A stretch of DNA of 64,000 nucleotides from an uncultured Gammaproteobacteria bacterium (lineage in GTDB: Bacteria > Patescibacteriota > Patescibacteriia > GWA2-47-26), in the NCBI GenBank assembly GCA_964532925.1, contig CAZHIP010000002.1, positions 21,127-85,126 on the forward strand, given 5' to 3'. Under the pieces are notes generated by a model, which worked only from the letters and a program-made list of their open reading frames with translations, was not told the DNA's origin and searched no databases. The position numbers and the translations under genes were made by a program. How positions within the stretch are numbered: the stretch's first letter is position 1; every line of letters starts with the position of its first letter. Shown piece after piece: positions 1,635-4,112 of the stretch.

Positions 1635-1663
1635 TTGACAAAACAGCCTTTTTGTGGTATAAA
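1635..1663 (+). promoter_or_regulatory. Sigma70-type promoter (TTGACA-N17-TATAAA) driving GC-rich gene A through a ~165-nt leader
   Basis: Near-consensus -35/-10 hexamers with 17-nt spacing. Confidence 0.5.
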
Positions 1664-1829
1664 GTGACGTTCATTGAAAACCGATTTCTTTGCAATTTCT
1701 AGCCTCAAAAAGGCGCGGAATGCTTCATCTGAAGTATTTTTCGCCCCTTCGGGGCTAGAAGTTGTAGCCTATGAGATTTCGAGTGACCAAAACCGGCACA
1801 TACGTGTGCCAACCCCAAAGGAGGGGAGC

Positions 1830-3125
1830 ATGAATGGTTTGAAGGCCTTGATGATGTTCGTAGCGCTGGTTCTCAGCGCCTGCGACGGCCTCGCCCCGCA
1901 AGGGAACGAGCCCGTCGCTTCGCCGCGGCAGTGCCCGGCAGACTCCAGCTGCGTTCCGCCGGTAACGGTGGGGCAGTCCATTCAGTACGGCGACGGGCCG
2001 TACTGGTGTGCGACCCAGTCGCAGTGTCCGATGGCCGAGCACGCCACGTGCACGCCGCAGGGAGTGTGTACGTACACGTCCTGCAGTCTGGCCGCGGCCA
2101 CGTGCCCGGCAGATCATCCGACGTGCGACACTTCGGTGTCGCCGGCGACCTGCAAGGGTGCGGTTGTGGCGAACACGACTCCGCCTGCGCAGATCGATGG
2201 TGGCGTCTCTCGAGTGTGCCTCACCGCAAGTGAGTGCGTGATCGAGGGTACGGTCGCCGCGGACTGGCTCTGTCAGTTCAAGGTGGCCGGGTGTGGCACT
2301 TCCAATAAGGGGGTGTGCATCCGTAACCGCGACGCACGCTGCGCGAACAACTATCAGGAGTACTGCGGCTGCAACGGCGTGACCCGCTGGAGCTACCAAG
2401 AGACTTCTGACTGCGCATTCTCGCAGTACGCATCGGTTGGCGCGTGTCCTGTCGCCGACGGTGGCGCTTCTCCGGCCGATGGCGGCGTGGTTGCCGACGG
2501 CGGCGTTGCTCCGGCAGACGGTGGCACTTCGGTGTCGCCGGACGCAGGTGTGACGCTCGACGGTGGCGTGATCATGCCCGATGGCGGCGTGGTTGCCGAC
2601 GGCGGAACTTCGGTTCCTCTGGACGGTGGCACGGTCGTTCTCGATGGCGGCGTGATTGCAGACGGCGGCACTTCGGTGCTTCCGGTCCTCGAAGACTCAT
2701 CGCGCGCGGTGGTTCGTCTCACTGTGGATCAGACGCGTATTCCCACCGCCTGTACCACGCCGAAGCTGGTGGCATGGCCGGCGACGCTCATTGGCGGACA
2801 GCTCTCCTTTACAACGGAGAAGCTTTCCACCGCGGGTCTCACTCTCGATATCCAGGTCGTCAACGGCTGGGAGTTTGGTCCACTGCGCGCAGCAATTCGA
2901 TGCGGCACAAGTGGGGCAGAGTTGCTATGGAGCGCTATTCTCGACGGCGGCGTGTTGACTCCGGCGAGCGTTGGTGTGACAGAGGTCAAGCTCTATGAGC
3001 GCGGCCTTCTGTCTATGCCGACCGACATGCTCGCGCTCGACAAGGTTGGATTCTGCGGCACCAAGCTGCAGATCGCCATTAGCAAAAACGAGGGCAAGAC
3101 AAATTGCCCCGCAACAGTTCCTTAA
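1830..3125 (+). CDS. GC-rich lipoprotein: lipobox signal peptide, Cys-rich domain, (V/I)ADGG tandem repeats, unknown C-terminal domain
   Basis: AGGAGG RBS before ATG at 1830; signal peptide with LSAC lipobox; 14+ Cys in the first 230 aa; repeats such as PADGGVVADGGVA; GC3-rich codons unlike flanking genes. Confidence 0.6.
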   Translation: MNGLKALMMFVALVLSACDGLAPQGNEPVASPRQCPADSSCVPPVTVGQSIQYGDGPYWCATQSQCPMAEHATCTPQGVCTYTSCSLAAATCPADHPTCDTSVSPATCKGAVVANTTPPAQIDGGVSRVCLTASECVIEGTVAADWLCQFKVAGCGTSNKGVCIRNRDARCANNYQEYCGCNGVTRWSYQETSDCAFSQYASVGACPVADGGASPADGGVVADGGVAPADGGTSVSPDAGVTLDGGVIMPDGGVVADGGTSVPLDGGTVVLDGGVIADGGTSVLPVLEDSSRAVVRLTVDQTRIPTACTTPKLVAWPATLIGGQLSFTTEKLSTAGLTLDIQVVNGWEFGPLRAAIRCGTSGAELLWSAILDGGVLTPASVGVTEVKLYERGLLSMPTDMLALDKVGFCGTKLQIAISKNEGKTNCPATVP

Positions 3126-3137
3126 CCTCAACCTCTA

Positions 3138-3181
3138 GCGGTGGGCGTCTTGAATTAAAAACTCAAGACGCCCGCTTTTTC
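3138..3181 (+). terminator. Long imperfect hairpin plus T-tract terminator after gene A
   Basis: agcggtgggcgtcttgaatt...aactcaagacgcccgc followed by ttttt. Confidence 0.6.
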
Positions 3182-3283
3182 ATTTCTGCTGACTTATTTG
3201 ATTGACCATAGCAGGTGCCGCATGGCATGATAGCCACGATCAGTCTTTGGGAAATCGTCTTACAATTTCACCAGGAGGGCGAG

Positions 3284-4042
3284 ATGAATCTCCGAAGGTT
3301 TCTGATGCTTGGGTTGCTTTTCGTCGCTGTGGGTTGTGGTTCCCACTTCCCGCAAGATGTGCTTCCCATGAATGGTCTGCCTACCGATGCTGGCAGCACG
3401 CACGTGCGCAGTATCGACGTCATGCAACACCATCTCGACAACGCAAGGCTCCGCGCATGCGGTAACTTTACGCCAAGCCAAGATGGCGGCTCTCTCGATG
3501 CTGGTGTCAGTGTCGACGGGGCTGCAGATGCAGGGGTAGTCGTCGTGTTGGGTACATCGATCGACGCTGGGGTGTTTGATGGGGGTAGTAGTGCTCCCAT
3601 AGTTGATCTGGGATCGCGTGGCGTGTTGGTGGCAGAGCTCAACCGAGAAGCACTACCAGTGCCTTGTTCGAATCCTGGATTTGAAATCTTCTCTCAGGTC
3701 ATGGTCGGTACTCCTCTGCAATTGAGTTCGATAATGACTCGACGGAATGGGTTTCGCACAGAGATCCAGATTCCTGCAGGGGCAAACGTGCCGGTGCATA
3801 TGAAGTTCTTTTGTGACATGAGTAGCGGCAGTCCCATCCTGATGGGCGGCGACTCTGATCCAGCGTGCTATACAGCGTCGCTACATACGTTCTTCTCGGA
3901 GCTCGCGCTCTATGAGTTGAGCGGCAACGTAGTAGACATGCGTGTTGAACGTCGTGCAATTACGTACATTGGCAAGACTCGGGTATCGGTGACATCCGAA
4001 CCAGTGGTGCCTGCCACATTCTGCGTTGACGGTGGTCATTAG
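3284..4042 (+). CDS. GC-rich lipoprotein paralog with D(A/G)G repeats
   Basis: AGGAGG RBS; signal peptide with VAVGCGS lipobox; SLDAGVSVDGAADAG repeats; same compositional bias as gene A. Confidence 0.55.
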   Translation: MNLRRFLMLGLLFVAVGCGSHFPQDVLPMNGLPTDAGSTHVRSIDVMQHHLDNARLRACGNFTPSQDGGSLDAGVSVDGAADAGVVVVLGTSIDAGVFDGGSSAPIVDLGSRGVLVAELNREALPVPCSNPGFEIFSQVMVGTPLQLSSIMTRRNGFRTEIQIPAGANVPVHMKFFCDMSSGSPILMGGDSDPACYTASLHTFFSELALYELSGNVVDMRVERRAITYIGKTRVSVTSEPVVPATFCVDGGH

Positions 4043-4068
4043 TATAAAAGGAGAGAGATACTAAGGTT

Positions 4069-4112
4069 CGCGGGTGCTTTGAAGGGAAACTTTCAGGGCG
4101 CCCGCTTTTTTA
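4069..4112 (+). terminator. Terminator after gene B, similar in sequence to the gene A terminator
   Basis: gcgggtgctttgaag...ctttcagggcgcccgc followed by tttttt; shares ...gcgcccgcttttt with the terminator at 3138. Confidence 0.6.

Follow-up and report, generated by a model that had tools for sequence, protein, structure and literature searches.

In the window analysed here, a 64 kb stretch of DNA from a Patescibacteria genome, two adjacent lipoprotein genes (A and B), flanked by tatD on one side and a Mur ligase gene on the other, form a GC-rich island. The question they raise is whether they were imported together from a donor with a high G+C content, as the first-pass annotation had proposed, or belong to the lineage in which they are found. 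The second answer is favoured below: the two genes probably constitute a lineage-specific hypervariable surface-lipoprotein locus of Patescibacteria (CPR, Parcubacteria-like), set in a fixed slot between tatD and the Mur ligase gene of the division cluster, whose GC-rich coding is an old family property, confined to the coding sequences (CDS) and actively maintained, and no relic of a recent transfer.

Genomic Context and Base Composition

The neighbours of the locus encode MraY, FtsW, MurG, and TatD upstream and the Mur ligase, DivIC, FtsE, and FtsX downstream. The best matches of the Mur ligase were Patescibacteria MAGs (47–53% identity). The upstream boundary of the island is the intrinsic terminator of tatD (1599–1629, forward strand; stem-loop 1599–1621), which was identified by a terminator scan and in the sequence as AAACCCGC...GCGGGTTT plus a T run; the downstream boundary is the gene B terminator, after which the Mur ligase gene begins at 4173. 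The nearest tRNAs (5950–6115) are 1.9 kb away, past two core genes. A gene for a VKOR-type disulfide oxidoreductase is located elsewhere in the same window. Identical island genes, including exact copies of gene A, were present in the assemblies of three separate, independent runs, so the island is not an assembly artefact. In the public NCBI record of gene A, only the last 248 of 431 codons were called, which shows that public annotation of such genes can err.

The G+C content of the window was 46.8% (1-kb windows, sd 3.2%; elsewhere in the analysis cited as a mean of 46%), and the rest of the window served as the compositional background. The sliding-window check proposed with the first-pass annotation revealed a local peak at 1.8–3.1 kb (64% at 2001–3000) and no other strong one. 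The G+C content of 60–65% ascribed to the whole region from about 1830 to 4040 applies to gene A (63.6%; z = 7.8 relative to segments of equal length in the rest of the window) and not to gene B, which reached 54.4% (z = 3.1), inside the background maximum of 55.2%. The codons had also been called GC3-saturated, which overstates the values: GC3 of gene A was 0.67–0.78 versus 0.43 in the background, high, not saturated, and well above the value of any other gene in the window that is confidently coding, and GC3 of gene B was 0.54–0.57 (0.47–0.57 across B alleles). A native lipoprotein gene at 31887–34187 had a GC3 of 0.37. The rise in G+C content is bounded by the start and stop codons; the intergenic DNA has 42–48% GC, and the leader and terminators are of native G+C content.

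Transcription Signals and the Structured Leader

The gene A promoter (1635–1663, forward strand) was read from the sequence. It is near-consensus, with a −35 box TTGACA (1635–1640), a 17-nt spacer, and an extended −10 element TGgTATAAA (1655–1663) that includes TGn; the promoter scan missed it solely because the −10 box ends in A. The same −35 box, a T-tract in the spacer, and the downstream GTTCnTTGAAAAC were found upstream of both island genes of the relative L005. The promoter of gene B (3202–3231, forward strand), detected by the promoter scan, consists of TTGACC, an 18-nt spacer, and TGg-CATGAT; it matches 9 of 12 consensus positions, carries TGn, and is kept in the alleles of L006, L089, and L170. 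A consensus sigma70 promoter had been assigned to each gene, a description that suits gene A and is too strong for gene B.

The 5′ leader of gene A (1669–1829, forward strand; about 160 nt) begins with a conserved motif GTTCATTGAAAAC (1669–1681) and contains the Shine-Dalgarno sequence AGGAGG (1819–1824). A conserved three-helix long hairpin extends over 1674–1782. The minimum free energy of the leader was −70.4 kcal/mol (z = −6.5), and its consensus structure comprised 37 pairs, with 91.6% of cells paired versus 36–48% with the partners slid; double changes were observed at 11 pairs versus 0–4 when slid. The leader is non-coding, since the indels between relatives are not multiples of three. 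Promoter and leader are common to three A-type genes. The leader, which the first-pass annotation had considered long enough to be regulatory, does carry a conserved structure; the two small hairpins named there are not conserved in relatives. A search of positions 1500–4300 against Rfam 15 gave no family match, only two sub-threshold chance matches, both on the tatD terminator, and the leader hairpin is an RNA structure without earlier description.

The gene A terminator (3143–3181, forward strand; stem 3143–3173) is an inverted repeat, GGGCGTCTTGA...TCAAGACGCCC, followed by GCTTTTT. The gene B terminator (4070–4115, forward strand; stem-loop 4070–4105) was obtained from the terminator scan and has a 16-pair stem followed by TTTTTTATTT. 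The homology claimed earlier for the two terminators is borne out by tails with 81% identity over 32 nt, and a tail resembling the A terminator, GCGCCCGTTTTTCATTT, was found 3′ of the first island gene of L005. The two genes would be transcribed independently, each from a promoter of its own and up to a separate intrinsic terminator. As tandem paralogs, likewise recognised in the first-pass annotation, they each comprise promoter, CDS, and terminator and share the C-terminal domain and the terminator tails.

Domain Organization of the Lipoproteins

Gene A (1830–3125, forward strand) was delimited by its ORF and RBS and encodes a modular lipoprotein of 431 aa. Its signal peptide (residues 1–17; N-terminal signal MNGLKALMMFVALVLSAC) is followed by the lipobox LSAC with Cys18 (1881–1883), a Cys-rich orphan N-domain (residues 18–208; 1881–2453), a D-G-G repeat linker (residues 209–283; 2454–2678), and a type-1 C-terminal all-beta domain (residues 284–431; 2679–3122). 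The Cys-rich domain had been described as 230 aa with at least 14 cysteines; it is indeed present, with a length of about 190 aa and 20 Cys plus the lipobox Cys. Gene B (3284–4042, forward strand; RBS AGGAGG at 3273–3278) encodes a lipoprotein of 252 aa composed of a signal peptide (residues 1–17; N-terminal signal MNLRRFLMLGLLFVAVGC) with the lipobox AVGC and Cys18, an N-terminal segment with a D[GA]G linker (residues 19–105), and a type-1 C-terminal beta domain (residues 106–252). Linker and C-terminal domain are shared by the A and B proteins at 25–29% identity (E = 2e-11). The D-G-G/D-A-G low-complexity repeats attributed to both genes were counted as 11 D[GA]G repeats in the A linker (residues 210–280) and five in B; the repeat DNA has a 63-nt unit present three times and a 21-nt tandem period. 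The AlphaFold2 model of A, which was of low confidence, shows the linker as disordered and the C-domain as beta.

Both proteins have a basic n-region, a hydrophobic h-region, and a lipobox ending in Cys, as expected for Sec/SPII lipoprotein signals and as had been stated for both genes. The lipobox was assigned by eye against the published PROSITE PS51257-type pattern, and AVGC fits the relaxed pattern only; the lipobox Cys is invariant in 7/7 aligned family members. Lipidation, surface exposure, and disulfide bonds are predicted properties.

The island proteins had no match in Pfam, NCBIfam, PHROG, PADLOC, or the PDB. Their repeats, with a period of 6–9 residues and no Pfam match at E ≤ 1, are not of the RTX type (GGxGxDxUx). 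For a diversity-generating retroelement, no repeat of at least 35 nt between the island and the rest of the window was found, and no reverse transcriptase of such an element was recognised; the RVT_3 match upstream is part of an RNase H gene. The profile of the Cys-rich N-domain was compared with 1.84 billion representative proteins, and its sole match was P0002, the product of a syntenic gene in L005; outside the clade, no homolog was detected in this set. The word-indexed searches returned clade members plus repeat-only matches and nothing else; the C-domains were covered by this type of search only, which distant homologs could escape. A D-G-G repeat ORF was found at 0 of 160 other Patescibacteria Mur ligase loci.

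Synteny, Allelic Replacement, and Domain Swap in Relatives

The comparison covered three lineages and four B alleles. In L005, whose TatD and Mur ligase are 79% and 72% identical to those of the window, the gene order is MurG, TatD, a 362-aa lipoprotein, the 367-aa P0002, Mur ligase, and DivIC, and both island genes have 60–66% GC versus 48–50% in the flanks. The N-domains of A and P0002 are 75% identical (dN 0.18, dS 0.87); the C-domains differ. The slot between tatD and the Mur ligase gene is occupied in strain L006 too. Its Mur ligase is 98.7% identical at the amino acid level (dS 0.15), and its A-like gene carries a type-2 C-module, which is non-homologous to type 1 (hhalign probability 1%). 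The gene B proteins of the window and L006 are 57% identical (dS about 2), in flanks that are 96–97% identical; the spacer between gene B and the Mur ligase gene is 96% identical in L006. Across the four B alleles, two of which came from the same run, CDS DNA was 59–69% identical, versus 78–97% in the non-coding flanks and the signal-peptide start. Sequences L089 and L170 contain no core gene, and their genomic distance was gauged from the flanks only.

These data speak against a recent island. The compositional anomaly is clear in A and marginal in B, and the slots of L005 and L006 are filled with related GC-rich lipoprotein genes. Syntenic orthologs in low-GC relatives were what the first-pass annotation had named as evidence against its own reading. 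A homolog of like composition in a donor lineage was not recovered, the N-domain profile reaching only the syntenic P0002, and the homology search suggested for identifying a high-GC donor yielded none for the Cys-rich domain outside the clade. Neither mobility genes nor border repeats were found at the locus, nor an integrase or an adjacent tRNA. Among the relatives compared, none had an empty site; hence, the data fit an insertion in the ancestor of the clade as well as an older ancestry.

Maintenance and Origin of the High G+C Content

The GC3 of the orthologous Cys-rich domain is 0.78 in A and 0.80 in P0002 (L005). In the flanks, four-fold-site identity was 0.21–0.35, where saturation would give about 0.25. 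The argument rests on 80 four-fold sites within the domain, of which 37 differ; 15 of these 37 changes are G<->C, and the corresponding count for the flanks is 33 of 237 (p = 3e-4). Since GC3 is alike despite saturated silent sites in the flanks and G<->C changes are enriched, the composition is maintained and is not that of a fading import. The force that keeps GC3 high may be selection, biased gene conversion, or another process, and some such force would be needed in any case.

A recent acquisition of a two-gene block from a high-GC donor is scarcely credible. The z value of gene A and a GC3 well above that of all confidently coding genes in the window would agree with it; however, the anomaly of gene B is slight in all its alleles, L005 (flanking proteins 72–79% identical, silent sites saturated) and L006 have GC-rich orthologs or paralogs in the same position, GC3 has been kept, and the rise in G+C content stops at the CDS ends, in native regulatory DNA kept across relatives. 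With no donor homolog of the N-domain among the 1.84 billion representatives and no mobility genes, the horizontal origin proposed in the first-pass annotation is not upheld. It is also very improbable that the GC excess is a mere by-product of the amino acids and of GAC-GGC-GGC repeats, with no anomaly at the codon level. The proteins are indeed rich in Gly, Ala, Val, Thr, Pro, and Cys (GC2 0.55–0.61 versus 0.40), and with background codons the protein alone gives 0.51–0.61 GC. Nevertheless, every domain of A lies above its expected G+C content. In the N-domain, 0.658 was observed, whereas 0.539 is expected with background codon usage and the background is 0.464, so that about 40% of the excess is due to amino acid composition and about 60% to codon choice; GC3 is 0.67–0.78 against an expected 0.43–0.45, also outside the repeats. 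The by-product explanation is therefore contradicted for gene A and largely adequate for the gene B alleles with a GC3 of 0.47–0.49. In A-type genes, G/C-ending codons account for most of the high G+C content, and an abundance of Gly, Ala, Pro, Cys, and Thr in the protein contributes a further part.

An ancient transfer is a possible, if unlikely, origin: an unsampled donor of high G+C content, which may have been a host, would have passed a GC-rich lipoprotein gene to the ancestor of the clade, where it later duplicated; codon constraint would since have held the composition, and native promoters would have evolved or been retained. The limitation of the family to a narrow clade (absent from the 160 other Mur ligase loci), a codon usage foreign to the window (GC3 0.78 versus 0.43), and D-G-G repeat proteins on a 66% GC contig with type VI secretion genes (P0003, L007) are consistent with it. 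Against it, the N-domain search gave no donor homolog, the protein matches of high G+C content are confined to the low-complexity repeat, the change in composition lies at the start and stop codons, with leader and terminators native, no integrase, border repeats, or adjacent tRNA was found at the locus, and the turnover of silent sites with retention of G/C calls for a maintaining force anyway. The locus could also be a recombination hot spot whose high G+C content results from GC-biased gene conversion, as a by-product of hypervariability. The mosaic pattern, allelic replacement, and domain swap do point to frequent recombination, and the silent changes are biased to keep G/C. A regional process of this kind is in keeping with the recombination signal but not with a composition that changes so sharply where each CDS starts and stops; moreover, the most conserved segments, the intergenic promoters and terminators that are the presumed anchors, have 42–48% GC, and gene B, the most clearly replaced, shows the weakest GC3 excess (0.47–0.57). 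A GC3 shift of +0.35 is far beyond what bacterial gene conversion usually explains, and this origin is considered improbable.

Proposed Function and Comparison with Known Systems

In the favoured reading of a lineage-specific hypervariable locus, the proteins would be exported via the SPII-type signal and anchored by the lipidated Cys18, and a flexible (V/I/P)xDGG repeat linker would hold a beta-sandwich module of about 145 aa off the membrane; the A protein would add the 190-aa domain with 20 Cys, presumably disulfide-bonded. Promoters, the A-type structured leader, terminators, and the signal-peptide start are conserved among relatives, and the ectodomain DNA is exchanged: gene B exists as old, deeply diverged alleles, and gene A has one or the other of two unrelated C-modules, with the junction in the repeat linker. 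Incoming DNA most likely enters by homologous recombination, for which the conserved flanks and the repeat linker would serve as anchors, under selection for surface diversity. The likely role of the locus is host-cell contact or escape from phage or host recognition.

A further model, regarded as rather unlikely, treats promoter, leader, and signal peptide as a fixed expression site into which unrelated modules are recombined time and again via the D-G-G linker, making a population-level cassette system with selected GC3 in an episymbiotic CPR bacterium. The G/C-ending codons, along with the 5′ hairpin, may then give a message that is strongly structured and long-lived; alternatively, modules and repeats may be common to the locus and the surface proteins of a high-GC host, or may mimic the latter. 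If this model were true, composition would carry functional meaning as a mark of host-interface genes and could help to locate them, and perhaps hosts too, in the genomes of other CPR bacteria.

The variable lipoproteins Vlp, Vsa, and Vsp of Mycoplasma are encoded by adjacent paralogs with their own promoters, a conserved 5′ UTR and signal peptide, and a variable, repeat-bearing mature part; Mollicutes are small-genome, host-dependent bacteria with a wall-reduced or monoderm envelope. The present locus resembles them in its adjacent paralogs with separate promoters, in the conserved 5′ region and signal peptide and the variable, repeat-bearing mature part, and in the kind of organism. Unlike them, it has no similarity to any curated family, it varies between strains (by allelic replacement and module swapping) and not within a clone, and its maintained GC-rich codons and Cys-rich domain have no Mycoplasma counterpart. 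No phase-switch device of the kind known from Mycoplasma Vlp/Vsa or Borrelia Vls systems was recognised: the promoters are not bracketed by inverted repeats, and the promoter regions read showed no homopolymer tract. Neither the 64-kb window nor the 10 kb upstream contained silent module copies, and no recombinase adjoins the locus. In replacement-type flexible genomic islands ('metagenomic islands'), surface-structure genes lie between conserved core genes, a pattern read as phage- or partner-driven. A fixed slot, conserved flanks, surface products, and alleles that are deeply diverged, with little or no homology, and occur side by side in related populations are common to these islands and the present locus, where, however, the replaced unit is one domain or one 0.75-kb gene and not a multi-gene glycosylation cluster, and the compositional signature is stable and confined to the CDS.

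A hypervariable repeat surface protein is known in a CPR genome: the PTD-repeat protein of Gracilibacteria (BD1-5), predicted to be extracellular, has a short repeat in a coil and local hypervariation in an otherwise homogeneous population, and the motif recurs in unrelated bacteria that may be hosts, again in surface proteins (PMC6851277). A CPR bacterium, predicted extracellular location, short amino acid repeat, local hypervariation, and a repeat motif with counterparts in unrelated bacteria are shared with the locus described here. That case involves nucleotide hypervariation in one array with a conserved peptide, an N-terminal TM anchor, and a 29% GC genome (PMC6851277), whereas here whole ectodomain modules are replaced in lipoproteins with a 17-point GC excess. 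For the uptake of incoming DNA, the cited report describes natural competence demonstrated in Saccharibacteria (PMC10187176).

The locus is a concrete, compact candidate for how uncultivated Patescibacteria recognise and hold partners, a subject on which almost nothing is known. It combines an orphan lipoprotein family under evident pressure to vary with a recognisable slot in the division cluster, and its conserved regulatory DNA could be used in population studies as a handle for PCR or read recruitment. The locus also advises caution in composition-based transfer calls, as a 17-point GC excess can outlast saturating silent divergence. Runs of xxDGGxx repeats like those of the present locus occur in P0003 (66% GC contig L007) and P0004 (L088). 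P0004 has a lipobox, Cys-rich segments, and a CDS of 65% GC beside spacer DNA of about 40% GC, and lies downstream of a GC-rich gene whose product ends in ...NCVPLP, as in type-2 modules. The likeness of P0003 and P0004 to the island proteins concerns only the low-complexity repeat (18–20% of the query), with no common globular domain.

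Organization and Authenticity of the Lipoprotein Locus

From the tatD terminator (1599-1621) to the start of the Mur ligase gene (4173), the sequence is taken up by two plus-strand genes, A (1830-3125, 431 aa) and B (3284-4042, 252 aa). They are best read as a hypervariable surface-lipoprotein locus specific to this lineage. Their upstream neighbors are MraY, FtsW, MurG, and TatD, and their downstream neighbors are Mur ligase, DivIC, FtsE, and FtsX. Both genes have an AGGAGG ribosome-binding site, and the first-pass annotation, which read them as lipobox lipoproteins, agrees with their N-termini: each is basic and hydrophobic and ends in a lipobox (LSAC in A and AVGC in B), the cysteine of which was kept in all seven aligned family members. 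A and B are separate transcription units. The individual promoters and related terminators claimed earlier were found on the plus strand as TTGACA, 17 nt, TGgTATAAA for A (1635-1663) and TTGACC, 18 nt, TGgCATGAT for B (3202-3231), with a clean intrinsic terminator closing each gene and terminator tails 81% identical over 32 nt.

Gene A comprises three parts. The first is a cysteine-rich N-terminal domain (residues 18-208; 190 aa, 20 cysteines), which showed no internal duplication; eleven D[GA]G repeats, made from a 63-nt unit present three times, form the linker (residues 209-283), and a C-terminal domain of 148 aa completes the protein. Gene B opens with a brief N-terminal segment, and its five D[GA]G repeats lead into a C-terminal domain that is related to the one in A (25-29% identity, E=2e-11). 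A VKOR-family protein is encoded on the minus strand at 54125-54751 (E=5.5e-41; the public record gives a 197-aa version), which we take to mean that the organism can form extracytoplasmic disulfides; this homolog fits an exported domain with 20 cysteines.

Both genes, in the same context, were identical in the per-run assemblies of three sequencing runs, so the locus is not an assembly artefact. The per-run Logan assemblies give 431 aa for A and 252 aa for B. The NCBI record of the 98,806-bp source contig annotates only the last 248 codons of A from an internal GTG start, without the signal peptide and the cysteine-rich domain, and gives B as 271 aa. The 431-aa reading of A was adopted because of its ribosome-binding site, its signal peptide, and an N-domain ortholog that is 75% identical, with a dN of 0.18 against a dS of 0.87. 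A TTG at 1674, upstream and in frame, was not accepted as the start codon of A, since its frame is not kept in relatives and the ribosome-binding site and signal peptide lie at 1830. Long antisense ORFs across the locus were also rejected as genes, such ORFs being expected in GC3-rich DNA. They form four pieces in the window, including 1755-2399 and 2393-2722 on the minus strand over the GC-rich gene; in the related contig L005, one minus-strand ORF of 397 aa (4439-5632) spans the whole gene of P0002, a 367-aa lipoprotein. Their fragmentation differs in the window, and they could mislead gene callers.

The best relatives of the Mur ligase, among 185,579 species genomes and the JGI metagenomes, were Patescibacteria (Parcubacteria-like) MAGs with only 47-53% identity; the lineage is therefore poorly sampled. 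Downstream of the locus, at a distance of 1.9 kb and beyond the genes for Mur ligase and DivIC, are tRNA-Gly(CCC) and tRNA-Thr(CGT) (5950-6115), followed on the minus strand by a 106-aa ORF (6180-6500) that had no Pfam match and that gene calling on the Logan contig also reported. No link between these features and the locus was seen.

Base Composition

The mean GC content of the window was 46.8% (1-kb windows, sd 3.2%), and its sole strong peak was located at 1.8-3.1 kb, reaching 64% at 2001-3000. The earlier description of a GC-rich two-gene island holds for gene A (63.6%, z=7.8 against equal-length windows elsewhere in the window) but not for gene B, where GC is merely 54.4% (z=3.1) and within the background range. 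The GC1/GC2/GC3 values of 26 background genes of the window were 0.55/0.40/0.43; GC3 was 0.78 in the N-domain of A, 0.67 in both its linker and C-domain, and 0.54-0.57 in B. Re-coding of the A and B proteins with background codon usage gave a GC of 0.51-0.61, from which about 40% of the GC excess of the A N-domain is attributed to amino-acid composition and about 60% to codon choice. Beside and between the two genes, intergenic DNA has 42-48% GC, and the rise is bounded by the start codon and the stop codon. The G/C-rich codon usage of A-type genes is real, old, and actively kept.

Relatives in the tatD-Mur Ligase Slot

Contig L005, from another project, encodes a TatD 79% and a Mur ligase 72% identical to those of the window, in the order MurG, TatD, a 362-aa lipoprotein, the 367-aa P0002, Mur ligase, and DivIC. 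The two island genes of this contig reach 60-66% GC vs 48-50% in the flanks. P0002 contains the cysteine-rich domain of A (75% identity), then D-G-G/D-A-G repeats, and then another C-terminal module. In the near-identical strain L006 (Mur ligase 98.7% identical to the window, dS 0.15), an A-like gene ending in a P0002-type module is followed by a gene B allele and the Mur ligase gene. The first-pass annotation had proposed transfer from a high-GC donor, and by its own standard syntenic orthologs in related genomes would speak against this. Given syntenic GC-rich lipoprotein genes in L005 and an occupied slot in L006, a recent transfer is not supported, the underlying observation being itself largely right.

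Mur ligase scans of genome and metagenome collections yielded 160 Patescibacteria loci. Identity among them did not exceed 53% except in one partial sequence (59%), and neither the adjacency of tatD and Mur ligase nor a D-G-G repeat ORF occurred in any of the 160. A 1-kb patch of 60% GC (5700-6770) was seen in one Saccharibacteria-labelled MAG locus of 47% GC (L058), some 4 kb ahead of the Mur ligase gene. Its ORFs are all short, overlap one another, and lack signal peptides, and the patch was rejected as a relative of the lipoprotein family.

Module Swapping and Probable Allele Replacement

Four alleles of gene B were compared (window, L006, and two loci, L089 and L170, from one sequencing run). 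They share 52-63% protein and 59-69% DNA identity, and the 125-130 nt of non-coding DNA on each side are 78-97% identical among them. Between the window and L006, dS is saturated in gene B (~2) vs 0.15 in the adjoining Mur ligase gene. These values, together with the conserved flanks, indicate that gene B has probably been replaced by old, divergent alleles via recombination in those flanks. Neither local hypermutation nor simple positive selection would yield saturation of B beside a low-dS neighbor. Natural competence has been shown in cultivated Saccharibacteria (PMC10187176), which makes DNA uptake followed by homologous recombination into the locus a plausible route.

In gene A, whole modules are swapped: the shared N-domain and linker precede a type-1 C-domain in the window, and L005 and L006 have a type-2 C-domain in that position. 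The two types have no detectable homology (hhalign probability 1%). The repetitive linker DNA is about 80% identical between strains and would be the obvious joint for module swaps. No repeat pair of the diversity-generating retroelement type and no silent cassettes were found within the sequence available, and no inverted repeats bracket the promoters. Retroelement-driven diversification, clonal switching by cassettes, and invertible promoters were accordingly rejected.

Under the reading as a hypervariable surface-lipoprotein locus, expression signals and anchors would be conserved at a fixed chromosomal slot, and the exposed modules would be replaced or swapped between strains. Such behavior is that of interface genes under frequency-dependent selection; in an episymbiotic CPR cell the interface would most plausibly be one at which a partner is attached, or at which phage or host recognise the cell. 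Closest in kind among known systems are the variable lipoproteins of Mycoplasma, replacement-type flexible genomic islands, and the hypervariable repeat surface protein reported from a Gracilibacteria genome (PMC6851277). Two sub-findings are testable: the GC3 maintenance confined to coding sequence and the putatively conserved leader hairpin.

Maintenance of G/C-Ending Codons

In the flanking genes, four-fold sites of conserved residues were identical between the window and L005 at 0.21-0.35, vs about 0.25 by chance, and are therefore essentially randomised. In the cysteine-rich domain, 37 of 80 four-fold sites differ, and GC3 is still 0.78 and 0.80, respectively. The differing sites remain 62-68% G/C, and G<->C exchanges account for 15 of the 37 differences, compared with 33 of 237 in the flanks (Fisher p=3e-4). 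In a simple retention estimate, the excess identity of 0.31 corresponds to about 45% site turnover per lineage, and new bases drawn from the background would demand more than 100% G/C at the ancestral domain sites, which argues for a force specific to these coding sequences that keeps G/C-ending codons. The composition of the A-type coding sequence is thus maintained and not that of a fading import.

The GC-rich coding sequence may have been acquired by ancient transfer, at the base of the clade, but the maintaining force is needed regardless. Biased gene conversion may lie behind the codon usage and fits the recombination signal; against it, the flanks have native GC and the GC3 excess of B itself is weak. 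Being a lipoprotein is not enough to account for the bias, since a plus-strand gene at 31887-34187 (766 aa) has a lipoprotein-type signal (…LLSC) and a GC3 of 0.37. The latter gene is a second repeat-bearing lipoprotein of the window and is compositionally native; a unit of about 150 nt is repeated five times in tandem within it (32192-32909; 69-74% identity), and it had a weak sub-threshold match to DUF5980 only.

Conserved Leader of A-Type Genes

Upstream of both L005 island genes is sequence that can be aligned with the promoter and the leader (about 160 nt) of gene A. The elements in common include a -35 box, a T-tract, and, where the transcript is predicted to start, a GTTCnTTGAAAAC motif; the corresponding pattern is TTGACA, 7-9 nt, TTTTG, 14-17 nt, GTTCNTTGAAAAC. 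The window leader folds at -70.4 kcal/mol (z=-6.5), far better than shuffled sequences, and matched no Rfam family. Together, the three leaders give as their consensus a long hairpin of three helices and 37 pairs (window 1674-1782), in which 91.6% of cells pair vs 36-48% with the partners slid, and both sides have changed in 11 pairs vs 0-4. For three sequences, these values are suggestive of a conserved structured hairpin. The two small hairpins that the first-pass annotation named in this leader were not conserved in relatives. The position near the 5' end suggests mRNA stabilisation as the simplest reading, and a regulatory role may also be considered.

Searches for Homologs

Proteins A and B and their relatives had no match in Pfam, NCBIfam, PHROGs, PADLOC, or PDB sequence searches, and the identity of the D-G-G linker as RTX repeats was rejected after the Pfam search. 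With the N-domain profile, P0002 was the only true relative among 1.84 billion representative proteins. The remaining matches were the 25-residue overlap with the truncated public protein and one spurious repeat protein, P0013 (3926 aa, cysteine-free, with eukaryote-like repeats matched in 12 short stretches). A word-indexed search with full-length A, flooded by repeat-sharing candidates (8000 scored), returned only clade members and repeat-only matches; the same search with a three-sequence N-domain alignment gave zero matches and missed P0002 too, probably a limitation of the tool. Viral contigs scanned with three domain alignments contained no relatives. On the evidence of these searches, the locus appears to belong to no described family.

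One repeat-only match lies on a contig of 66% GC with type VI secretion genes. Another, P0004 (620 aa), is the product of a cysteine-rich gene of 65% GC with a lipobox and two long D-G-G arrays. It is the downstream member of a tandem pair of GC-rich (61-65%) cysteine-rich genes on contig L088 (1-3132; Logan SRR22387928). Between the two genes are 760 nt of spacer DNA with about 40-50% GC, and the partial gene upstream terminates in …NCVPLP, as in type-2 modules. Since P0004 is a GC-rich cysteine-rich lipoprotein beside a spacer of about 40% GC, the phenomenon may be wider in that habitat.

Elsewhere in the window, about 1.5 kb of raised GC was observed at 57200-58800, with the second-highest 1-kb value (53.8% at 57501-58500). 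Only short overlapping ORFs in several frames are present there, with no Pfam or Rfam match, and the segment may represent an RNA that lacks annotation, a gene in decay, or an orphan gene.
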